A DNA stretch of 64,000 nt from Candidatus Poribacteria bacterium. GTDB lineage: Bacteria > Poribacteria > WGA-4E > WGA-3G. The DNA is taken from the NCBI GenBank assembly GCA_965205015.1, contig OZ242029.1:704001-768000 (forward strand), given 5' to 3'. Every line of letters begins with the position of its first letter. The first letter of the stretch is position 1. A program made the position numbers and the translations under genes. The notes under the pieces are model-generated. The model was not told the origin of the DNA and made no database searches. It saw nothing but the letters and a program-made list of their open reading frames with translations. Shown piece after piece: positions 927 through 16,254 of the stretch.

Positions 927-1898
927 TTACGTTGTGCCATACGTGTTCCAGAACAGGACGTGCTCGCCTTCACATCCGTGCTCCCTTATGTAGTGAGCGA
1001 GTCCTGCTAACGTTTTACCGGTGTAGGTATTCTCAAGCGTAATGCCTTCATGCCCAGCCATCATCGCGACCGCACGCGCCCCTGCTTCCGTTGGAACGGC
1101 ATACCCTTCCCCAAAATCGCCGTGCCAGAGTTCAATCCGGCGTGGGTTGATGTCGTGAGCGTCCACTGCACCGATGAGACGCAGGATACGGCGTACCATA
1201 CGGGAGATTGCCCATGCATTTGCTACCACTGCGTCAGCGACACGTACACCGACGATTTGCGTGCGCAATCCGGCGAGTCGCACGCCAACGATCAAGCCTG
1301 CTATCGTGCCGCAGGTCCCCACCGGCACGAAGATAAATCGCGGCTCTGGTAAGAGGTCCGCCTCAATCTGGGATTTCAATTCTGAAACCGCTTTCACATA
1401 ACCGACGGAACCGAGCGGCGAAGAACCACCCGCTGGGATGAAGTAGCGTTCCTCTCCAATCCCAAGAACCGTCTTCGCCTGTTCATAGGCGTAACGGGCG
1501 AACATCGTCTGCATACGTTTCACTTCGTAGACTCGGTAGGCATTTTCACAAATTTTGCGATAGTTTGCTTCAGAATACTCAGTCGGCGGTTGTTTAAAGA
1601 GCAAGCATTCTACGCGAAATCCCGATGCTTTCCCATAAACGGCTGTCGCTCGGACGTGGTTAGAACCTGTTGGACCGATTGTAAAGAGCGTTTTTCTCTC
1701 GTCTCTATTCGGAGAGGCTTGCGCTGCTGCGAACATATACTCCAATTTACGGACTTTATTGCCGCCGCCTAACGGACCACTGAGATCGTCTCGTTTGATC
1801 CAGAGCGACTTGAAGCCGAGGGCGCGTTCAAGGTTCGAGAGACGCGCCACCGGTGTCGGGAAGTTTCCGAGTGAAAAGTGTGGGATTGATTTAATCAT
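927..1898 (-). CDS. PLP-dependent D-cysteine desulfhydrase / ACC deaminase family
   Basis: KRDDLSG..GGNKVRKLEY, SNH, PAGGS, GTCGT and YTGK motifs. Confidence 0.85.
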   Translation of the reverse strand: MIKSIPHFSLGNFPTPVARLSNLERALGFKSLWIKRDDLSGPLGGGNKVRKLEYMFAAAQASPNRDERKTLFTIGPTGSNHVRATAVYGKASGFRVECLLFKQPPTEYSEANYRKICENAYRVYEVKRMQTMFARYAYEQAKTVLGIGEERYFIPAGGSSPLGSVGYVKAVSELKSQIEADLLPEPRFIFVPVGTCGTIAGLIVGVRLAGLRTQIVGVRVADAVVANAWAISRMVRRILRLIGAVDAHDINPRRIELWHGDFGEGYAVPTEAGARAVAMMAGHEGITLENTYTGKTLAGLAHYIREHGCEGEHVLFWNTYGTT

Positions 1899-1922
1899 CT
1901 TGTTGGCGCATCCTTCGCCAGT

Positions 1923-2077
1923 GGGCAGGCACGAGACCTGCCCCTACAGTAAAATTATGGGCAGGCACGAGACGGAGGGAAATCCGCAGAAATACGCAGA
2001 AATACCCTATCAAAAACACCCAAGCAATACGCAGAAATATCCTACCAAAAACACCCCAAGCAAAAACCCCCTACAGT
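1923..2077. repeat. GTAG-type REP palindrome, a partial second copy and a ~36-bp tandem duplication
   Basis: gggcaggcacgagacctgcccctac (reverse complement GTAGGGGCAGGTCTCGTGCCTGCCC); aatacgcagaaata..caaaaacaccc(c)aagca occurs twice. Confidence 0.7.
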
Positions 2078-2081
2078 AGGA

Positions 2082-3635
2082 TTACACGCTACCGTTCCCC
2101 GTAATCCGATGGGCAACGTGCGTAGCGAGTGCGGCGACCGTCAACGTCGGGGGCACACCGATGGAGGTCGGAAACAGACTCGCATCCGCAACAAATAAAC
2201 CTTTCACGGCGTGGGATTCCCCTGACAGATTAACGACGCTTCTGTTGGGATTCTCGCCCATCTGAAGCGTGCCCTGTGGATGACTGGAAGCCAACATGAT
2301 GTCATTTGGCACGATACCACGTTGACGGATAATCTCGAGGTCCGCCTCTGTTTTGATAGGAAAGTGCTGTGTATAAGGCATCAGAATTTCTGTTGCGCCT
2401 GCGGCGAAAAGGAGGCGAGCGGCGTTGATTATCCCTTCCACCAATACTTTCTTATCCGAACGACGCAGTCGGTATCCAATGTTCGGGGACCCCTTATAAT
2501 CCACCGATACGCGTCCGGTTGTTCTGTCATGCAAAAGGACGAGGAGCGCGGCGATGTGACGATAGCGTTCCATTAATTCCCGATGATCTTCACCGAATCC
2601 CGGCAGACTTGCCGCCATTATCACCTGTGAGCCGAAAGCCGGCATGAGCAGATAACCGCTGTCCGGTAGGCGTTTCATATCCAGAAAGTGATCAATATAG
2701 TAACTTTGCGGGATACCGAGATGTCCATCAATGGTTTCGTTAAAGACCCCACCGACGAAGGCAGCGGGATGCAGATGGAGATTTTTTCCGACCCGCCGGT
2801 TCGCATTGGGAAGCCGACTTTTTAACCAGAGTTGTGGCGAGTTGATAGCCCCAGCAGCGAGTACCACTCTATCGCTCTGCACATGCAATTTGCCCGACGG
2901 CATCCGCGCGGAAACACCAACGACTCGCTCCTTTTCCACGTGAATTTTCTCAGCCGTGCAGTCGCTGTAAAGCTTCGCACCTGCGGCAAGTGCCAAAGGG
3001 ATATACGTAACCCCCATGCTCTGCTTGCCCGTTCCTCTCGAATTGCTTTGCGCTGCTTTGGAAACAGGACATCCAAAAAGACACTGAACTCCACATGTAG
3101 GGCATTCACCGCGGTTGTGCCTTTGCACTCCACCGCGCCACCGCATCGCCTCGCACCCCCGGCGGATAACAGTGTTTAATTGATTTACGTCTGTTTCTTG
3201 CATCTGCGTAACGCCGAGGATCCGCTCCACCTGATTGAAGTGGGGCCAAATCTCCGGGACCTGCCACCTGTATAAGAGTGCTTGGGCTGGGCGGACCGCA
3301 TAGCAGAGATTATGTACCGTTGAACCGCCAACCCCTTTGCCTTGTGAAACGATAATCGCGTTGTCCCGGGTACGCCGTAAACCGCTCTCCCAGAAAAGGC
3401 GACGCAGCATTTCCGGTTCGTAGTTACCGAAGGTACTCGGATCGTGATTTTCCCCTGCCTCTAAAATAATCACCGATAATCCGGCTTCAGCGAGCTCCTT
3501 CGCGACGACCGCGCCTCCCGCGCCGGAACCGATGACGCACACATCGGCGCGCTCTTGCCGCTGTATACTTTTTTTCTTCAACCATGTGGATCGAATATTG
3601 GTAGCCTTTGAAAGCCAAGATTGTGATTTATTCAT
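2082..3635 (-). CDS. GMC family oxidoreductase
   Basis: VIGSGAGG FAD motif, GKGVGGST, AAGAINSP, GKNLHLHP, HPQGT, DASLFPT..PTLT. Confidence 0.9.
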   Translation of the reverse strand: MNKSQSWLSKATNIRSTWLKKKSIQRQERADVCVIGSGAGGAVVAKELAEAGLSVIILEAGENHDPSTFGNYEPEMLRRLFWESGLRRTRDNAIIVSQGKGVGGSTVHNLCYAVRPAQALLYRWQVPEIWPHFNQVERILGVTQMQETDVNQLNTVIRRGCEAMRWRGGVQRHNRGECPTCGVQCLFGCPVSKAAQSNSRGTGKQSMGVTYIPLALAAGAKLYSDCTAEKIHVEKERVVGVSARMPSGKLHVQSDRVVLAAGAINSPQLWLKSRLPNANRRVGKNLHLHPAAFVGGVFNETIDGHLGIPQSYYIDHFLDMKRLPDSGYLLMPAFGSQVIMAASLPGFGEDHRELMERYRHIAALLVLLHDRTTGRVSVDYKGSPNIGYRLRRSDKKVLVEGIINAARLLFAAGATEILMPYTQHFPIKTEADLEIIRQRGIVPNDIMLASSHPQGTLQMGENPNRSVVNLSGESHAVKGLFVADASLFPTSIGVPPTLTVAALATHVAHRITGNGSV

Positions 3636-7570: not shown

Positions 7571-7696
7571 TGTGAGTTCGACTTAAGGATTTCAAGGAAT
7601 TCACCACGATATACCATGTTTCTCAAGGACTTGGAACAGACATATTTAATTGGTGCTTTCCAAACACATCCCGTTGAAGGAGATTTTGCCGTGAAC

Positions 7697-10600
7697 ATGC
7701 GAGTCAAACGTTTCTTTTTCATACTCACCCTCTTATTGAGTTTTTTGCCGCTGGGTTTTGCCCAAGATCTACTACCGAGGCCGATAGTACGGATCATCTA
7801 CTTTTCTCCAAATGACCGCGCTCCGCAGCCAGACATAGATGAAAAGATAGATAGGTTAATAAAGGATGTGCAGGCATTTTACGCACAACACATGGAAAAC
7901 CACGGGTTTGACAGAAAAACTTTTCTGCTTGAAACCGACGCACAGGGAAAAGCTATCGTCCATCACGTGAAGGGCCGGTTCAACCACACATATTATCAGA
8001 ATAACTGGAGGAAAGCTGAGAGAGAATCTCTTGAACAGTCTGACAGACGAAACGCCTCTATCAATTTTATTGTGTTAGATGTAAACCTCGAAGGAATAAC
8101 GCCATGCGGTGGGGGCAGTGGAAATGGGCATGTTGGAAGAGCATTTGTTACCACCCAACCAGATTGTTTTAACGTTCCAATTATTGCGCATGAACTCGGG
8201 CACGCCTTTGGACTCTGGCACGATTACCGCCCCGTTGGCGGCAACTGGAAACGTGCCTTAGGTATCAGGGACCCTATGATAACATCTTTGTGCGCTGCGG
8301 AGTGGTTGGATGTGATTTCCGCCTTTAATGCCCCCCAAACCCCGTTCAATCAGAGAACAACAATTGAGATGCTTGGGCCGCCAACCCTCGTGGCAGCCCC
8401 GAACACCTTCCGTTTCCGCTTTAAAGTGCAAGATTCGGATGGCCTCCATCAGGTGCAACTGCACATGCGGGATCCCTTGATTGGACACGCTGGTGACTCT
8501 TTGTTGGATTATAAGGGATTAAAAGGAGTCCGCAGCAGTACCCTTGAATTTGTTAGCAGTATCCTACTGGGGCCGACGACGCATGGTGTAGTGATTGAAA
8601 GCATTGATGTGCATGGATACACACAATCCCAGAATTATCCAGTTGACCTGACTCCGCTATTTCCTCCGCCTGAAGTTGTGTCTATACCAGATGCGAATTT
8701 GGCATCGGCAATCCGGCGAGAGATTGGCAGTTCAATCACGACGCGCACGCTGCTGAATTTAACCTCTCTTGCTCTCCCTACTCGCAGAATAACAGATCTT
8801 ACCGGTCTTGAACATGCACACAATCTACTCAGCTTAAATCTTAGGCGTCAGCACATTGGTGGAGAGGGGTTTTCGGTATTAGATTTGTCACCGATTGGAA
8901 ATTTACCCCGACTGTCACGGCTGGACCTTTCTCACAATTCCCTCACGGATGTCGCACCCCTCTCGGGATTAACATCACTGAGAGAACTGTGGCTTTCTGA
9001 CAACAATATCACGGATGTCGCACCCCTCTCCGAATTAACATACCTGACACGACTGTGGCTTTCTGACAACAATATCACGGATGTCGCACCCCTCTCCGAA
9101 TTAATACAACTGAGAGAACTGTGGCTTGATGGCAACAATATCGCTGATGTCGCACCCCTCTCGGGATTGACACAACTCACAGAACTGCGGCTTTCTGGCA
9201 GAAATATCACGGATGTCGCACCCCTCTCAGGATTAACACAACTCACAGAGCTGGAGCTTCCTTACAGCAATATCACGGATGTCGCACCCCTCTCAGGATT
9301 AACACAACTGAAATACCTAAGGCTTTCTTACAGCAATATCACGGATGTCGCACCCCTCTCAGGATTAACACAACTGAAATACCTGGGGCTTCATCGCAAC
9401 AATATCACGGATGTCGCACCCCTCTCCGAATTAACACAACTGAAATACCTAAAGCTTTCTGACAACAATATCACGGATGTCGCACCCCTCTCCGAATTAA
9501 CACAACTCACAGAACTGCGGCTTTTTGGCAACAATATCGCTGATGTCGCACCCCTCTCCGAATTAACACAACTGACAAGGCTGTACCTTGATGGCAACAA
9601 TATCGCTGATGTGACACCCCTCTCCGAATTAACACAACTGAAATACCTATGGCTTCATCGCAACAAAATCACGGATGTGACACCTCTCTCGGGATTGACA
9701 CAACTCACAGAACTGTACCTTGCTGACAACAATATTACTGATGTGGCACCCCTCTTGGGATTAACACAACTGATAGAACTGAGGCTTCAGACTAACCCAC
9801 TGGGCTATGCCTCTATCCACACACACATTCCTGCCATGCAGGCAAAAGGGATCCCAATCCGTTTTCACAATGTTGTGCATCCCGCACTCCTGAAGGTCTC
9901 AGGCGATGCACAGACAGGATCGGTGGGGAATCCTCTGGCAGCTTTTATTGTCGAAGCACAGGATGAACGCGGCCAGCCAATGCCTGACGTACGCGTCAAG
10001 TTTGCAGTTGAGGCAGGTGGAGGCACGCTCAACCCAACAATCACTGCGACCGATGCCGATGGCAAGGCACAAACAATCTTGACACCCGGATGGACTCCTG
10101 ACACGACTACTATTCGCGCAACTGCCACAGGTATTACAGCATACGTCCGTTTTACAGCGACCGCCACCGTGCTGACAGATCGCCGTGCTGAAGATGTCAA
10201 TGCGGACGGTGTTGTTGATGTGGAGGACCTCGTCCTTGTGGCATCCAGTTTCGGGGCGGTGCCGACTCCCAGCACGCTTCCCGATACGGACATCAACGAT
10301 GACGGCGACATCAATCAAGAAGATGTCGAATTGGTTTTAGCGGCACTTGAGGCAGCACCCGCTGCGCCTTCCCTGGATACGCAGTGGACTGTATCAAGCC
10401 TTCAGCGGTGGATCGCAGAAGCGAAGCAACGGAATATAGGTGATGCTACTTTTCAGCGAGGCATAAAAATACTTGAGAAACTGCTCGCAGATTTGCTCCC
10501 GAAACAGACACTACTTCTCGCCAACTATCCGAACCCGTTCAACCCGGAGACGTGGATACCCTATCAACTGTCAGAACCAGGAGATGTGATAGTGCATATC

Positions 10601-10795
10601 TATGGGGTGAACGGCGTATTAGTGAGGACGTTGGGATTGGGGCATCAACTTGCGGGAACGTATCAAAGCCGGACGCGCGCGGCGTATTGGGACGGACACA
10701 ATCAACTGGGGGAACCTGTGGCAAGTGGTGTCTATTTCTATACATTGTCTGCCGGCGATTTCACGGCGACGCGGAAGATGTTGATACGGAAGTAG
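7697..10795 (+). CDS. Secreted internalin-like LRR protein: zinc metallopeptidase (HELGHAFGLWH), 13 LRRs, Ig (Big_1), dockerin-like and C-terminal FlgD/T9SS-like domains
   Basis: HExxHxxGxxH; 22-aa LRRs; DVNADGVVDVEDL; LLANYPNPFNPETWIPY...VASGVYFY; start moved to MRVKR after a GAAGGAG SD. Confidence 0.85.
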   Translation: MRVKRFFFILTLLLSFLPLGFAQDLLPRPIVRIIYFSPNDRAPQPDIDEKIDRLIKDVQAFYAQHMENHGFDRKTFLLETDAQGKAIVHHVKGRFNHTYYQNNWRKAERESLEQSDRRNASINFIVLDVNLEGITPCGGGSGNGHVGRAFVTTQPDCFNVPIIAHELGHAFGLWHDYRPVGGNWKRALGIRDPMITSLCAAEWLDVISAFNAPQTPFNQRTTIEMLGPPTLVAAPNTFRFRFKVQDSDGLHQVQLHMRDPLIGHAGDSLLDYKGLKGVRSSTLEFVSSILLGPTTHGVVIESIDVHGYTQSQNYPVDLTPLFPPPEVVSIPDANLASAIRREIGSSITTRTLLNLTSLALPTRRITDLTGLEHAHNLLSLNLRRQHIGGEGFSVLDLSPIGNLPRLSRLDLSHNSLTDVAPLSGLTSLRELWLSDNNITDVAPLSELTYLTRLWLSDNNITDVAPLSELIQLRELWLDGNNIADVAPLSGLTQLTELRLSGRNITDVAPLSGLTQLTELELPYSNITDVAPLSGLTQLKYLRLSYSNITDVAPLSGLTQLKYLGLHRNNITDVAPLSELTQLKYLKLSDNNITDVAPLSELTQLTELRLFGNNIADVAPLSELTQLTRLYLDGNNIADVTPLSELTQLKYLWLHRNKITDVTPLSGLTQLTELYLADNNITDVAPLLGLTQLIELRLQTNPLGYASIHTHIPAMQAKGIPIRFHNVVHPALLKVSGDAQTGSVGNPLAAFIVEAQDERGQPMPDVRVKFAVEAGGGTLNPTITATDADGKAQTILTPGWTPDTTTIRATATGITAYVRFTATATVLTDRRAEDVNADGVVDVEDLVLVASSFGAVPTPSTLPDTDINDDGDINQEDVELVLAALEAAPAAPSLDTQWTVSSLQRWIAEAKQRNIGDATFQRGIKILEKLLADLLPKQTLLLANYPNPFNPETWIPYQLSEPGDVIVHIYGVNGVLVRTLGLGHQLAGTYQSRTRAAYWDGHNQLGEPVASGVYFYTLSAGDFTATRKMLIRK
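8930..9790 (+). repeat. 66-bp coding tandem repeats (13 LRR units)
   Basis: gatgtcgcacccctctc(c/g/a)ga(a)ttaac recurs every 66 bp. Confidence 0.9.
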
Positions 10796-10997
10796 GATGC
10801 AGCAGCGTTTCATTGATGTATCCGAGTTTGACAAATATAACGCGACGGTGTACAATTTAACAAAGCCATTTGGAGGAATCTCCTGCTCAATATTAACCTC
10901 AGCTAACGTTTCGGTTCTAAACTGAGCTCATATTAATCACGCGCAGTATTTAGGAAGAAGGGGATAAAAATGAATGCAACTATTGAATCAACGATAG

Positions 10998-11276
10998 GTC
11001 AGTGACCCAAACCTAAAGGATTGGGACCTGTCCACTACGCCAACCAAGGCTATAGGGTGGACGAGGGCAACTCATTGACTACCGTAAAATATCGCAGATA
11101 CAGGAGTTGTGGTAGACTCCAACTATGTCAAGAAAACGCTATACCGAACTGGTAGTAGGTATAGTTAAGGATACTCCCCTCGTCTTTGTCCACTTGGTAT
11201 CTGTGATCGGGAAGGGGCAACATATACCCGCTATTAGCGGAGGGTCTCCGAAAGGTCATTACCTGTTTTCTTGACA
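10998..11276 (+). ncRNA. HEARO / omegaRNA-like structured RNA
   Basis: GTCAGTGA/TCATTGAC closing stem, GGATACTCCCC..GGGAAGGGGCAACA..TACCC motifs typical of HEARO, long-range pairings TGTCAAGAAAAC/GTTTTCTTGACA and GCAGATAC/GTATCTGT. Confidence 0.7.
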
Positions 11277-11484
11277 GCACCGGGTCAGGTCAAAGTAAGT
11301 TCTGGTGACAGCAGAAACGAAACGAAGCAGCCTACTGGGAAGAATCGCCAAAGCAGCACCGTGGCGAAAAAACGGACTGCACTTTTCTAGAAGTTTCTTT
11401 TTTTAACCTGGACCTTTGGTCCTTTCCAAGAGGGCGGATTTTCCTCCCAAACTTAAAAGTTTGGGTTTCCAATCCGTAAATCTG
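10998..11484 (+). mobile_element. Non-autonomous IS200/IS605 (IscB/IsrB-type) element, no nuclease or transposase ORF
   Basis: Near-identical subterminal hairpins CCCAAACCTAAAGGATTGGG (11006-11025) and CCCAAACTTAAAAGTTTGGG (11446-11465); starts GTCAG; no target duplication; excision restores the host ORF. Confidence 0.75.
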
Positions 11485-11712
11485 ATGAATTAACAACCGA
11501 TCCGAAAACACCCTCGGAAGGGAAGCAGATGATCCCTCATATCGCAACAGAACAAGCAGATTCAAAACAAATAGCACTTATGGACTATGCCGAGGAACAA
11601 CTTCGGAAATTAGCAACTTCTCGCGGATTAGATTGGGAGGCTATGACCGATGAGGACCGCATAGATTTTGTTGATAACCTCGTCCACGAGGACCGTAAAT
11701 AAGGAGTTAATA

Positions 11713-12741
11713 ATGAAAGAAGTCAAGGTAGGTATTGTTGGGTGTGGTGGTATTGCCGGAGGTAAACACCTTCCGGGTCATAAAGGCGTCAAAGGCGTTT
11801 CGATTATCGCCGCGTGTGACATCGACGCAGCCCGTGCGAAAGCGTTCGCCAAAAAGCACGACATCCCACACGTTTTCAGCGATTACGAGGAATTAGCGGC
11901 AATGGATGAGTTGGATGCGGTGAGCGTTTGTACACCGAACAACTTCCACGCCGGTCCAACGATCGCGGCGTTGAAGGCGGGAAAACACGTTATCTGTGAA
12001 AAGCCGATCGCTGCTAATGCGGTTGATGGACAAGCGATGGTGGATGCGCAGAAAGCGAGTGGTAAAGTTCTACAGATCGGGTTACAATCTCGATTCCGTG
12101 CTGAGGCGCGCACCCTCCGCAAACTCTACGATGAAGGCTTTTTCGGAGACATCTATTATGCCCGTGCCATGTCAATGCGGCGGCGTGGGGTGCCTGCTTC
12201 ACCCTCTTTTCTGAGTAAAGCCATCGCAGGCGGCGGACCGTTGATTGACATCGGTGTGCATATCCTTGATGTGTTGCTCTGGATGATCGGTTGCCCGAAA
12301 CCGATTGAGGCGTTCGGGATGACAGCAACGAAGTTTGGACATAAAGAGAATGTCATCAACCCGTGGGGCAAATGGGATCCTGAAGATTTTGAAGTAGAAG
12401 ATTTCGCGATGGGCACTGTCCGCTTTGAGGGGGACCTGACGGTGACCTTGGAGACGGCATGGGCATCGCATATTGAGAACATCGGTGGGACGTTCTTTAT
12501 GGGGGATTTAGCCGGTGCGACCTATGAACCGCTTCAGATTTATCTTGATAAGAAAGATGAGATGGTGAATTATACACCGAAACTTCTTACCGGATTACCG
12601 AGTGAATTTGAATCGTTCCACACGGCTATTCGAGAAGGGTTGCCGTCTCCTGTTCCTGCTGAAGAGGTATTGAACGTCGCGAAAATCTTCGATGCGCTCT
12701 ACGAATCGGCGCGGATCGGTCGTTCCGTCCCGATTTTTTAA
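11713..12741 (+). CDS. Gfo/Idh/MocA family oxidoreductase
   Basis: GIVGCGGIA, AGKHVICEKP, GGGPLIDIGVH; AAGGAG SD before ATG 11713. Confidence 0.9.
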   Translation: MKEVKVGIVGCGGIAGGKHLPGHKGVKGVSIIAACDIDAARAKAFAKKHDIPHVFSDYEELAAMDELDAVSVCTPNNFHAGPTIAALKAGKHVICEKPIAANAVDGQAMVDAQKASGKVLQIGLQSRFRAEARTLRKLYDEGFFGDIYYARAMSMRRRGVPASPSFLSKAIAGGGPLIDIGVHILDVLLWMIGCPKPIEAFGMTATKFGHKENVINPWGKWDPEDFEVEDFAMGTVRFEGDLTVTLETAWASHIENIGGTFFMGDLAGATYEPLQIYLDKKDEMVNYTPKLLTGLPSEFESFHTAIREGLPSPVPAEEVLNVAKIFDALYESARIGRSVPIF

Positions 12742-12750
12742 TTTACCCTG

Positions 12751-12901
12751 CGGGCAGGCACAAGACCTGAGGATACGGGTAGGCACAAGACCTGAGGATA
12801 CGGGTAGGCATAAGACCTGAGGATACGGGTAGGCACAAGACCTAAGGATACGGGTAGGCACAAGACCTGAGGATACGGGCAGGCACAAGACCTGCCCCTA
12901 C
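12751..12901. repeat. Six tandem 25-bp units derived from a GTAG REP
   Basis: cggg(t/c)aggcacaagacctgaggata x5, then a final unit ending in the full REP gcccctac; no spacers. Confidence 0.9.
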
Positions 12902-12902
12902 T

Positions 12903-13307
12903 TTATGGGTGTGAAGGCTTCTGGTAACTTGCACGTACAACGGTTTTGATGCCGCCACGGATATTAAAATCACCGATAACTTCCGCCTTCTGCGGTTGGC
13001 ACGCTTCAACAAAGTCCTCCAACACCTTATTCACGACGTGTTCATGAAAGATACCAATATCTCGATAAAAAAGGAAGTATTCCTTCAACGACTTCAGTTC
13101 GACACAATGCTGGTCTGGCACGTAGGTAATACAGAGGGTTGCGAAATCCGGGAGTCCCGTTTTAGGACATACCGCAGTGAATTCTAAGTTGGTAATCTCG
13201 ATCGTGTAATCCCGGTGGCTATACTGATTTTCCCATGTCTCGATTGGAGGTGTTTCCAGTTGACGGATATGGGTTTGTAGATCGTCATAGCCGGTACTTT
13301 GGTTCAT
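12903..13307 (-). CDS. queF: NADPH-dependent 7-cyano-7-deazaguanine reductase (type I QueF)
   Basis: EFTAVCPKTGLPDFA, VELKSLKEY, FHEH, FNIRGGI. Confidence 0.95.
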   Translation of the reverse strand: MNQSTGYDDLQTHIRQLETPPIETWENQYSHRDYTIEITNLEFTAVCPKTGLPDFATLCITYVPDQHCVELKSLKEYFLFYRDIGIFHEHVVNKVLEDFVEACQPQKAEVIGDFNIRGGIKTVVRASYQKPSHP

Positions 13308-13422: not shown

Positions 13423-16254
13423 TTACTTCAGAATTACCATTCGACGGGTGCGTTCAAAACTGCCAGCGGAAAACGTGTAGAAATAGACACCGCTGGCGAC
13501 CTTCGTTCCATACCGGTCTCTCCCATCCCAGTACGCCGCTTTCTCTTGGCTCCGATAACTGCCCGGCTCCTGTAACCCAATATCCAACTGGCGTACAAGT
13601 CCTCCTCGGACATCATAGATTTTCAGAACAACCTCTGCCGCCTCCGCCAGATCGTAGGGAAACCACGTCTCCGGGTTAAAAGGATTCGGATAATTCTGGA
13701 GAATCGTTGTCTGTTTAACATATCCGAGCATCGAGAGCAAATGCGAGGACGGATCCACAGAAAATGGGACATCCGCAGATCGGAACCCGAGATCAATTGG
13801 GTTATAGATAAACGCCGACCCCGAGTTATCACCAGCATTGTCGCTACCGAAGGCACCGACGATAGCGAATGCCCCTCTAATCGCAACAGATGCCCCGAAC
13901 AGGTCCGACTGTCTCGCGCCAGCGGCTTCAATCCGGCGTTTTTCTACCCAAGATAACCCATCTCGCAAAAAGGAGTAAGCCGCCCCTTTATCAAGTTGTA
14001 ACGCTGGATCGTCATGGAGATCTGCCAACGGGTGATTATCCTTCCACGCGCCGACGATTGCAGTATCTTCATGAATTGCGACGGCTGAACCGAATTCATC
14101 CCCGGTGTCGGCATCGCTTGCGCCTAACTTTGCCTGTTGTACCCAAGCGTTTCGCGTCTCCACAAAAATATAAGCCGCTCCCACATCATCAAGGTGTCGA
14201 TCTTCTTTAGGTGCGCCAATGATAGCCGCCCCTTTGGTGAGATTGACGGAGTAACCGAATTCGTCTCCGATGCTAATATCATTTGGAATCAGTAGGAGAC
14301 CTGGAGTCCATGTGCGACCATTGCGCGTAAAGAGATAGGCGGCACCCGAATCAGGTCCCGCTGCGTCACTTCGATAGGCACCGATGAGCGCATTATCTTC
14401 ATAAACACCCACAGCAAAACCGAACAGATCCCCGGGAACGGCACCTCGGTGCGTCAATTTCGCTTGTTGTGTCCAAGAGGCACCACTCCGGACAAAGACA
14501 TAAGCGGCACCCGAATCCGTGCCGATTTCGTCTTTCCCGTAGGCACCGATGATAGCGGTATCCCCGTGTACCGCGACGGCTGACCCAAACCGATCAAAGA
14601 TTTCGAGGTCGTCCCCGATCAATCTCGCCTGCTGAATCCACTCCTCGCCGACCTTTACAAAAACATAAGCTGCGCCGGCTTCGGGTCCTGCATCATCAAC
14701 ACCGGGCGCGCCAACAAGGACAGTTTCGCCGTCCATTGCCACAGCATTCCCAAAGAGATCCCCAACCTGTGCATCGTCAGCGGTGAGTTTTGTGCGCTGT
14801 AGCCAGAGGAGACCGCTGCGCTCAAAGATGTATGCGGCACCCGCGTTAGGTGCGATGTCATCATCTTGTTGTGCCCCAGAGATAGCAAAGTTACCGCTTA
14901 TGGCAACAGATACGCCGAACTGATCCTCTGAAGCGGTTTCGCCATCACTCAACTTGGCACTTTCCACCCACGAGGCATCCTCCCTTTGTTCAAAAATATA
15001 GGCGGCACCCGAGGATAATCCACCGGCATCTTGCTTCGGTGCCCCAGCGATCACTTCGTTTTTGTTTGCATCGATCGCGACAGCGAATCCGAGCTGGTCG
15101 CCAGCCCCTCTATCCGCTGCGACTAACTTTGTGTGCTGGTTCCAGAAGGGCGGCTCATTTTGTGTAAAGATATACGCCGCACCCACGACATCTTCTCCAA
15201 CGTTCGCCCCCGTCGCCCCAATGACAGCTGTATCGCCTCTGATGTCAACAGAAACACCGAAAGAGGACGCGCCATCAGGGTCAATCGGAATCATACGGAT
15301 ACGGATACGGTTTCTTTTTTGCTCCCATTCGGTACCTTCGCGCTTATAGATGTAAGCGGCACCACTTCCTCTATTTTTCGGTGAGGTCGCAATGGCAAAA
15401 TCCCCATCAACATCAACGGCGTATCCAAAATTATCTTCCGCTTCGGTATTGTTTCCGATAAGCTTCGCCTGAAATGCCCACCCGAATTGGTTCCGGACGA
15501 AAATATAAGCAGCACCGGCATCATTTCCGGCTTCATCCTCCCGAGTCGCCCCAACAATAGCGGTGTCCCCATCAATCCCAACGGAAAAGCCGAAATACGC
15601 GAAACTGTCAGGATCCGGGGCAATGAGTTTGGCGGTTTGATTCCAATTTTCTCCCGTCCTCTCAAAAACGTAGACGGCACCGCAATCTGCCAAAGGTTGG
15701 TTTGTACGATGTGCCCCAACGAGGACGGTATCCCCATCAATCGCTACCGAGATACCGAAATAATCAGCACGCGTTCCGTCAGACGCAATCAGTTTGGCTT
15801 GTTCTATCCATTCAGTTCCTTGTCTCCTAAAGATATATGCGGACCCTGAGTTCCTTCCGACCCCATCCTTCCTCGGTGCACCAACGACGGCGTAATCGCC
15901 ACTCATTGCGAGTCGCGTGCCGAATTCGTCTCCGCCTGCTGCATCGCTGGTGGTCAGTTTTTGATGCTGAACCCACCCAGTTTCAGTGCGCAGAAAGACC
16001 TGGACGGATCCAACATTTACGCCGAAGTCGTTGTCATCTTTCGGGACACCTACCATTGCAGAATCACCGCTGATACCGACACTCGCCCCGAGATTGTCCT
16101 GGAGGACCGCAGCACTCGTGTTGAGTTGCACTCGGTCGGCACTGCTTTGCAGGACCAAGCCGACGCCGAAGAACAAGATTAATATGGTTATTTGTAATTT
16201 TCTCAATTCTCTCTCCCTCACTATTGAACAGTACCTGATGCGCTGAACCGACAA
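13423..16254 (-). CDS. Secreted FG-GAP repeat (integrin-like beta-propeller) protein with C-terminal FlgD/T9SS-like domain
   Basis: About 14 FGxSVAIxGDxAxVGA..GAAYIF repeats; LQNYPNPFNPETW...VASGVYFY; start uncertain. Confidence 0.88.
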   Translation of the reverse strand: MSVQRIRYCSIVRERELRKLQITILILFFGVGLVLQSSADRVQLNTSAAVLQDNLGASVGISGDSAMVGVPKDDNDFGVNVGSVQVFLRTETGWVQHQKLTTSDAAGGDEFGTRLAMSGDYAVVGAPRKDGVGRNSGSAYIFRRQGTEWIEQAKLIASDGTRADYFGISVAIDGDTVLVGAHRTNQPLADCGAVYVFERTGENWNQTAKLIAPDPDSFAYFGFSVGIDGDTAIVGATREDEAGNDAGAAYIFVRNQFGWAFQAKLIGNNTEAEDNFGYAVDVDGDFAIATSPKNRGSGAAYIYKREGTEWEQKRNRIRIRMIPIDPDGASSFGVSVDIRGDTAVIGATGANVGEDVVGAAYIFTQNEPPFWNQHTKLVAADRGAGDQLGFAVAIDANKNEVIAGAPKQDAGGLSSGAAYIFEQREDASWVESAKLSDGETASEDQFGVSVAISGNFAISGAQQDDDIAPNAGAAYIFERSGLLWLQRTKLTADDAQVGDLFGNAVAMDGETVLVGAPGVDDAGPEAGAAYVFVKVGEEWIQQARLIGDDLEIFDRFGSAVAVHGDTAIIGAYGKDEIGTDSGAAYVFVRSGASWTQQAKLTHRGAVPGDLFGFAVGVYEDNALIGAYRSDAAGPDSGAAYLFTRNGRTWTPGLLLIPNDISIGDEFGYSVNLTKGAAIIGAPKEDRHLDDVGAAYIFVETRNAWVQQAKLGASDADTGDEFGSAVAIHEDTAIVGAWKDNHPLADLHDDPALQLDKGAAYSFLRDGLSWVEKRRIEAAGARQSDLFGASVAIRGAFAIVGAFGSDNAGDNSGSAFIYNPIDLGFRSADVPFSVDPSSHLLSMLGYVKQTTILQNYPNPFNPETWFPYDLAEAAEVVLKIYDVRGGLVRQLDIGLQEPGSYRSQEKAAYWDGRDRYGTKVASGVYFYTFSAGSFERTRRMVILK

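Follow-up and report, generated by a model that had tools for sequence, protein, structure and literature searches.

An ORF-less IsrB-type OMEGA element in Poribacteria with a 3' domain resembling helix 8 of signal recognition particle RNA

We analysed a window of 64,000 nucleotides (nt) from the genome of a Candidatus Poribacteria bacterium (contig OZ242029.1, positions 704,001 to 768,000; all positions below are those of the window), in which an earlier note, made from the sequence, had pointed to a motif similar to helix 8 of signal recognition particle (SRP) RNA. In this sponge-symbiont genome the SRP-like motif sits within a 733-nt region without long open reading frame (ORF), flanked by a gene for a 1059-amino-acid (aa) LRR (leucine-rich repeat)/peptidase-like protein, which ends at 10795, and by a 57-aa ORF, which starts at 11529 and is followed by a Gfo/Idh/MocA oxidoreductase gene at 11713. 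As judged from comparison with its relatives, the stretch 10998-11489 is a non-autonomous, ORF-less IsrB-type OMEGA element that has kept the omegaRNA scaffold and the end repeat. In place of the ~1-kb isrB ORF it has ~165 nt of structured RNA (11223-11384), consisting of two small hairpins, the SRP-like helix and an H-type pseudoknot. The locus is composed as follows:

10828 to 10856, + strand: promoter-like site TTGACA-17-TACAAT, 142 nt upstream of the scaffold, with 11 of 12 consensus matches
10978 to 10997, + strand: putative 20-nt guide in the 5' flank of the scaffold, different in each copy
10998 to 11222, + strand: IsrB-type omegaRNA scaffold, identified by homology to the RNA upstream of IsrB ORFs and by covariation
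11223 to 11257, + strand: two linker hairpins, CCCGC..GCGG and CUCCGAAAGG, seen in the alignments; only one in some copies
11258 to 11267, + strand: near-invariant single-stranded UUACCUGUU (conservation 0.95)
11268 to 11344, + strand: SRP helix-8 look-alike, defined by the RNAalifold register, pair counts, loop conservation and comparison with Poribacteria SRP RNA
11292 to 11323, + strand: variable arm replacing the canonical closing pair and GGAA tetraloop, with the apex CUG-GUGA-CAG at 11302-11311
11346 to 11380, + strand: H-type pseudoknot with stem S1 (CGCC 11346-11349/GGCG 11363-11366) and stem S2 (11353-11361/11373-11380)
11381 to 11413, + strand: T-rich spacer with a small GGACC-UUU-GGUCC hairpin; other subfamilies have a CCCC..GGGG hairpin here
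11414 to 11489, + strand: end repeat, i.e. (G)GAG, an outer stem GGCGGAU/AUCCGU around a CCCAAAC..GUUUGGG hairpin, then AAAUCUG
11490 to 11493, + strand: ATGA, an NTGA target-adjacent motif directly 3' of the element; it reads ATG AAT TAA only

An IsrB-type scaffold without a nuclease gene

A DNA search of five related genomes gave three long matches to 10998-11388, which lie in unrelated contexts and do not adjoin a large ORF, and short matches to 11169-11222 directly upstream of ~340-aa ORFs with a PLMP motif and a RuvC-like DPGS motif. As these ORFs match only RRXRR in Pfam and the HNH domain is absent, they are IsrB and not IscB; the make-up given for IsrB is PLMP and RuvC, no HNH and ~350 aa (PMC9581776, excerpt). 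The stretch 10998-11240 is homologous over its full length to the RNA upstream of IsrB ORFs (loci L099 and L094), one extra hairpin aside, and 28 of 30 IsrB loci have a match to the scaffold core 11169-11229 upstream of their ORF. The isrB ORF starts ~20 nt past the conserved GGGAAGGGGCAA, and it is at this position that the extra 3' domain begins; in the ORF-bearing relatives a single hairpin, a Shine-Dalgarno sequence and the start codon take the place of the linker hairpins 11223-11257. In 35 orphan copies RNAalifold predicts 47 pairs in the scaffold, 32 of them with compensatory changes; the scaffold is an RNA under selection. The alignment with the RNA upstream of PLMP/RuvC ORFs bears out the earlier note in placing the motif inside an omegaRNA element. 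Its proposal that the motif lies where the IscB ORF would be holds for the position, which is that of the ORF start in the relatives, but the nuclease is IsrB, without HNH. The motif is also within the element, as its description as cargo implied, but it is better seen as a replacement of the isrB ORF, and the same module occurs in a second repeat (see below).

On the 5' side column conservation is 0.34-0.46 at 10978-10997 and rises to 0.89 at 10998; in IsrB omegaRNAs the guide is followed by the scaffold (PMC9581776, excerpt). The promoter-like site at 10828-10856 is outside the conserved element and hence local to the window copy, and the two such sites found near the element, versus 1.8 expected from shuffles, are weak evidence. 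Since the + strand of 10998-11489 contains no ORF >50 aa and tblastn of IsrB against the whole window gave no match below E = 0.9, the window copy is standalone, and no further copy of the element was among the repeats found within the 64-kb window. Scans of the window revealed no tRNA and no tmRNA, and Rfam gave no match in the whole window at the gathering score. At E ≤ 10 on 10600-11700 Rfam yielded one chance-level snoRNA match only, not at the motif, and no match to HEARO (RF02033). As single sequences neither 11255-11360 (z = +1.0) nor the 491-nt fold (z = -1.2) is unusually stable, so that the case rests on comparative data and not on folding energy.

The SRP-like helix and its conservation

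In the window the motif reads CAGC (11275-11278), ACCG (11279-11282), GGTCAGGTC (11283-11291), a 32-nt arm (11292-11323) with CTG-GTGA-CAG at 11302-11311, GAAGCAGCC (11324-11332), TA (11333-11334) and CTG (11335-11337), in every piece exactly as first described. The split pattern GGTCAGGTC-N20-45-GAAGCAGC has a single match in the window, and none of 100 dinucleotide shuffles contains it. The fold starts with a lower helix (11268-11272/11340-11344) and a helix of two base pairs (bp; 11276-11277/11335-11336), continues with an asymmetric loop, which has CACC (11278-11281) on the 5' side and a single A (11334) on the 3' side, and leads via a four-bp helix (11282-11285/11330-11333), including the wobble U11285.G11330, to the symmetric loop CAGG (11286-11289)/AGCA (11326-11329). 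Above this loop follow a U-A and a C-G pair (11290-11291/11324-11325) and then the arm of ~32 nt.

The reference for comparison was genuine Poribacteria SRP RNA, not E. coli 4.5S RNA, and ffs and copy numbers were counted in the related genomes; E. coli genomes had no blastn match to the Poribacteria SRP RNA. With RF00169 at E ≤ 1 one ffs per genome was detected in all five relatives (62-75 bits), i.e. the genuine gene that the earlier note suggested looking for elsewhere was found in the relatives. Helix 8 of the Poribacteria SRP RNA reads AACC / CCGU / CAGG / UCC-GGAA-GGA / AGCA / GCGG / UA, and the helix of the element reads CACC / GGGU (or GUGU) / CAGG / UC-arm-GA / AGCA / GCCC (or GCAC) / A. 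The two RNAs agree at every unpaired position except one (ACC, CAGG and AGCA are shared), and both have the U.G wobble and four pairs between the loops. The paired positions differ by compensation, with CCGU/GCGG in the SRP RNA versus GGGU/GCCC or GUGU/GCAC in the element. Set against SRP RNA helix 8 as in RF00169, the element shares the asymmetric loop of 4 nt and 1-2 nt, the helix ending in U.G, the CAGG/AGCA loop and the U-A and C-G pairs above it, but has a variable arm of ~32 nt at the place of the tetraloop, a mobile context of ~490 nt and many copies.

In helix 8 the asymmetric loop and the symmetric one constitute the binding surface for SRP54 (PMC4605306, excerpt), whereas the tetraloop and the adjacent pairs serve the docking of FtsY (PMC11404819, excerpt). 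As Rfam gives no score for the helix of the element, the canonical tetraloop is absent and each relative has one true ffs, this helix is a look-alike of SRP RNA and not an SRP RNA gene. We also rejected the reading as a genuine SRP RNA of unusual form, since each of the relatives has a single normal ffs and the element occurs in many copies. The GTPase-associated centre of 23S rRNA, which we take to share the 3'-strand word with 4.5S RNA, was rejected as the model of a mimic, since the 5' strand and the loop geometry fit SRP only.

The conservation of the module was assessed with 42 long copies aligned with the window, and the counts for the 3' domain rest on 44 distinct versions extracted from Poribacteria genomes. 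Without prompting, RNAalifold finds the helix-8 register in these 44 copies, i.e. the lower helix, the two-pair helix, the asymmetric loop, four pairs and the CAGG/AGCA loop, followed by the U-A and C-G pairs and the variable arm. In the symmetric loop AGCA is present in 44/44 and CAGG in 41/44 copies, and the U.G wobble is invariant (44/44). The asymmetric loop has its A in all 44 copies and the full CACC word in 32, with a 3' strand of 1 nt in 30 copies and of 2 nt in 14. Helices 1-4 are 97-100% paired. The two-pair helix (alignment columns 35-98 and 36-97) covaries 22:21, in the four-pair helix columns 42-93 are G-C in 24 copies and U-A in 17, and all 4 pairs of the arm show compensatory changes. 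The apex of the arm is GTGACAG in 31 copies, GTGCGAG in 11 and GTACGAG in 2. Thus, both internal loops of helix 8 are reproduced in the window and in the sister copies, as had been claimed, and the GNRA cap proposed for the arm applies to the GUGA of 31/44 copies but not to the 13 with GUGCGA or GUACGA.

The pseudoknot was derived from the alignment and added to the RNAalifold structure before pairs were counted. With it, 94.4% of the cells are paired, versus 35-54% when the partners are slid by 1-3 columns, and 21 of 28 pairs change on both sides, a number reached in none of 500 shuffles. S1 is 98.9% paired and covaries in three of its four pairs, and S2 is 85.7% paired and covaries in six of seven; GAAAAAAC of the pseudoknot is invariant, as is the A-rich loop 11367-11372, which crosses S1. 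In every subfamily the SRP-like helix is followed by an H-type pseudoknot (CGCC/GGCG with a crossing stem of 7-9 bp and an invariant A6 loop), which has the appearance of a cap for the 3' end or of a triple-helix former. In the subfamily of the window S2 together with the U-run could act as a terminator; S2, with a loop above the length permitted there, was not among the terminators called in a scan.

Along the element, conservation is ~0.89 and ~0.93 for the two motif strands (in ranges one base off the motif), 0.69 for the arm and 0.41 for the 5' flank. The copies have diverged to ~67-75% overall, and yet the loops are almost unchanged, with the stems changed by compensation; divergent subfamilies keep the same core. 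Hence the motif, which the earlier note would have given up had it not been conserved in sister elements, belongs to the best-conserved parts of the family, and the covariation that it proposed to look for is present in the helices and in the arm. In databases of very large size, matches to the bare 17-base split pattern are no rarity: it was found in at least 120 metagenome and at least 118 viral contig stretches, which carry no information on distribution, and among the matches listed 0/238 had the extended signature; a few of the metagenome and viral matches represent genuine SRP RNAs with a second 5' word upstream. The weight therefore lies on conservation and covariation in the 44 copies, and from these we conclude that the likeness to helix 8 is not due to chance.

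Distribution, element ends and neighbouring genes

A phylum-wide search, in which three candidates were scored per genome, detected DNA related to the element in 56 of 175 Poribacteria genomes. R1, a covariance model of the 3' domain, found this domain at E ≤ 1e-5 in 37 of 150 Poribacteria genomes, with at least 21 copies in one genome and 20 in another. The 15 lower-scoring R1 loci that were fetched were all found again, and ten printed alignments keep the core despite an altered lower helix and pseudoknot. Three of these 15 loci, whose flanks were inspected (L426, L427 and L431), represent a second repeat that lacks an ORF and is ~580 nt long (L437 2875-3457; also L438-L441, L444 and L445), which has the SRP-like module in its middle. 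This repeat contains its own promoter-like site (TTGACA-17-TTTAAT), lacks the IsrB scaffold, is present in three near-identical copies in one genome and in at least three other genomes, and gave no Rfam match at E ≤ 1 (six loci). What it has in common with the first family is the module alone, with 95% identity to one copy across 57 nt. As an unrelated repeat carries it, the module is a portable unit that has been moved between elements. With a stricter pattern, one IMG/VR contig (45.8 kb, filed as viral; L459 1-480) was seen to contain a complete orphan element with the module.

IsrB matches are present in 81 of 175 Poribacteria genomes, and 34 of the 37 module-bearing genomes are among them, as read from both tables. 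The SRP-like module occurs in 0/30 ORF-bearing IsrB loci, and on this ground its reading as a transposon end downstream of isrB was rejected. In one genome (G109) all five IsrB matches listed carry a single in-frame TAG in an otherwise open frame of ~400 codons, and a few others listed with it (G004, G148, G144 and G152) have single in-frame stops, TAG, TAA or TGA, in their IsrB matches; these could be decayed copies or reflect a recoding event. TnpB genes of ~430 aa (Pfam OrfB_IS605 and Cas12f1-like TNB) adjoin inverted copies of the end repeat (L083, L091 and L093, ~1690-3020). Because TnpB genes adjoin the same repeat, two OMEGA nuclease families share one end-repeat landscape in Poribacteria.

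In the ORF-bearing elements the last isrB codons overlap an end repeat of ~70 nt, composed of GGAG, an outer stem around a CCCC..GGGG hairpin and AAGAUUUUG, with ATGA directly after it. The same end repeat follows the 3' domain in 41 of 45 orphan copies, 38 of which have ATGA next, and it is present in many copies per genome. The target-adjacent motif of IsrB is NTGA (PMC9581776, excerpt), and the ATGA at 11490 is consistent with it. In most copies the ATG after the element is the start codon of a host gene, and an ORF of 60 or more codons begins there in 29 of 45 copies; S1-like genes start at it in three orphan copies and an S10-like gene in one ORF-bearing element, and element and downstream gene are co-oriented in all cases. 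The end repeat sets GGAG beside AUG across its hairpin (window 11414-11493; L157 2490-2560; L099 2560-2630). IsrB-type elements thus appear to insert exactly before start codons, replacing the displaced ribosome-binding site. Copies of the element have unrelated flanks and shared ends, and Y1 transposase genes were found in 5/5 related genomes.

Relatives of the oxidoreductase of the window are 81-96% identical (80 loci used of 121 found), and the synteny downstream of the element is retained in them. The intergenic region with the element is found in none of these 80 syntenic loci, yet the entire intergenic region differs there too, so that they offer no clean empty site. The acidic 57-aa ORF (11529-11702) matches no Pfam family (best E 0.03), and the surrounding stretch is not conserved in the syntenic relatives. 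Further downstream, between the oxidoreductase gene and a queF-like gene, lies a tandem array (12726-12919) of 6-7 copies of a 25-nt unit that are ~94% alike. Related hairpins of the form GGGCAGGCAC.AGACCTGCCCC are present at 1908, 35784, 35829 and 48407. The window also encodes large secreted-type proteins, an LRR/metallopeptidase-like protein (7616-10795) and an FG-GAP-like repeat protein (13423-16254); both end in a C-terminal NYPNPFNPETW..FlgD-Ig/Por-tail-like sorting domain, and the 3' ends of the two genes form an inverted repeat (I4).

Possible roles of the SRP-like module

The sequence comparisons establish the anatomy, conservation, covariation, copy number and portability of the module. 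As to its role, we tentatively favour, at somewhat less than an even chance, that the SRP-like module docks the M domain of Ffh, i.e. bacterial SRP54, and thereby coats and stabilises the orphan omegaRNA. In this mechanism the module would be a docking site for the M domain, and the orphan omegaRNA, which has no nuclease translated beside it, would be protected by an abundant RNA-binding protein. The complex of Ffh with the element RNA would not be a targeting-competent SRP, as the canonical tetraloop for FtsY docking is missing and no productive engagement of FtsY is expected. The likeliest benefit to the element would be stabilisation or retention of a trans-acting guide RNA, with the 3'-end pseudoknot helping, and titration of Ffh may be a side effect. 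We favour binding of Ffh since selection holds exactly the nucleotides that SRP54-type proteins read as the surroundings drift, and since IsrB-linked RNAs do without the helix and an unrelated element adopted the module. The idea of a mobile guide RNA fused to an Ffh-binding module, put forward in the earlier note, is thus supported as regards the guide RNA scaffold and the SRP-like module, but the SRP models give the latter no score.

Several observations weigh against docking of Ffh. Cmsearch with the bacterial SRP models, which the earlier note had suggested as a check, did not score the motif at any setting up to E ≤ 10, and the helix alone (89 nt, 11262-11350) has no match to the Rfam SRP models (RF00169 / RF01854) at E ≤ 10. 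Three pairs beyond the symmetric loop, where the canonical GNRA tetraloop would be, the element has none, and at the distal apex only 31/44 copies have a GNRA loop. The first base of the asymmetric loop is C or U in the element versus A in the host SRP RNA. The invariant ACCUG at 11261-11265 may pair with the CAGGU of the 5' strand of the motif, an alternative fold on which covariation is uninformative. Conservation among repeat copies reflects in part shared descent, which the slid controls remove but the shuffle control does not. Moreover, each of the five related genomes has one Ffh gene, and with at least 21 copies set against a single ffs and a single ffh, strong expression would be predicted to titrate an essential protein, at a cost. 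Finally, ORFs downstream of the element have a strongly hydrophobic N-terminus in 8 of 29 cases (a crude count), i.e. there is no excess of secreted or membrane proteins, and targeting of mRNAs for secreted proteins was rejected as a role on this ground.

Alternatively, the helix may be a structural or protein-binding extension of the omegaRNA unrelated to Ffh, giving IsrB acting in trans an extra hold or forming a folding or stability domain with the pseudoknot, so that the likeness to SRP RNA would be convergent. This explanation is a serious one that we nevertheless consider rather unlikely. The domain is located at the scaffold's 3' end, a place at which variable stem-loops are tolerated in omegaRNAs, and truncation of SL8 did not eliminate activity (PMC9581776, excerpt). 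Moreover, a covarying pseudoknot always accompanies the helix, SRP models do not score it, and 34 of the 37 module-bearing genomes have IsrB. IsrB does not need the module, however, as none of the 30 ORF-bearing loci has it, and the unrelated repeat carries it without an omegaRNA scaffold; a match in all unpaired nucleotides but one, in the U.G wobble and in the loop sizes is also much to ask of convergence. The element might instead be mainly a cis-acting leader, a long 5' untranslated region whose SRP-like helix modulates translation or localisation of a host mRNA. The abutment on ATGA in 38 of the 41 copies with recognisable end repeat, the ORF of at least 60 codons opened by that ATG in 29/45, the GGAG beside the AUG across the hairpin and the constant co-orientation of element and gene would suit a leader, but the window copy has only ATG AAT TAA downstream, the downstream proteins are mixed without a secreted excess (8/29), and ORF-bearing IsrB elements are placed alike without the module. 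As the latter share the placement, it is due to the NTGA target motif and to selection, not to the module, and we regard a leader function as improbable.

Acting as DNA, the hairpin could be recognised, as a single-strand structure, by the Y1 transposase or by other machinery of transposition, in keeping with a family resembling IS200/IS605. IS200/IS605-like elements use subterminal hairpins, Y1 transposase genes are present in all five related genomes, and G.T pairs are tolerated in single-stranded DNA as well. Yet the helix lies ~150 nt inside the element end, ORF-bearing and evidently mobile copies lack it, and invariant internal loops with freely covarying stems are typical of a protein-bound RNA, which makes a DNA-level signal very unlikely. 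We give even less credence to a passive relic, i.e. a functionless fragment of the host ffs that was captured once by recombination. Mobile elements do capture host fragments, and the core resembles that of the host SRP RNA; in copies only ~67-75% alike, however, the loops are held amid compensatory stem changes, the host ffs is no longer matched at the paired positions, and the module has been retained in two unrelated elements.

Standalone omegaRNAs that act in trans are known (PMC9581776, excerpt). Like standalone IscB/IsrB omegaRNAs, the element has a covarying IsrB-type scaffold without adjacent nuclease gene in genomes rich in isrB; unlike them, it has a 3' domain of ~165 nt with the SRP-like helix and the pseudoknot at the place of the ORF. 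In the literature, supplementary omegaRNA catalogues aside, we found no report of OMEGA RNAs, or of bacterial mobile elements of any kind, that contain an SRP-like domain, and a term search of a 2026 OMEGA review (PMC13565253) gave no mention of SRP. A parallel is Alu, whose RNA shares the SRP9/14-binding motif of 7SL (PMC11581171, excerpt): in both cases a mobile element contains a protein-binding part of SRP RNA. In contrast, Alu copies the Alu domain and descends from 7SL, whereas the Poribacteria element copies the S-domain site for SRP54/Ffh, for which descent from ffs is conjectural, and is a relative of bacterial DNA transposons. In basidiomycete SRP RNAs helix 8 tolerates extra stem-loops with the SRP54-binding loops kept (PMC4605306, excerpt); these are genuine SRP RNAs with the insertion in the asymmetric loop, whereas in the element the insertion is at the apex.

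How an orphan omegaRNA attains stability and function without a co-translated nuclease is a question to which a selected SRP-like domain speaks. If Ffh binds, copying of the SRP RNA S-domain would be demonstrated for the first time in a bacterial mobile element, and the element would reveal a new route by which transposon-derived guide RNAs exploit host proteins. The module would then be a natural accessory domain to try on engineered omegaRNAs, and bursts of the element, with at least 21 copies versus one ffs, might affect host secretion. A wider proposal, possible but held with more doubt than confidence, is that a portable Ffh-docking module has been adopted by at least two unrelated mobile non-coding RNA families in Poribacteria, which would hijack an essential ribosome-associated protein; the module would then be the bacterial analogue of Alu/SRP9-14, directed at the SRP54-type protein instead. 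If this were true, guides without a nuclease could be protected and retained or brought to translating ribosomes or the membrane, or the SRP capacity of the host could be tuned at copy-number bursts.

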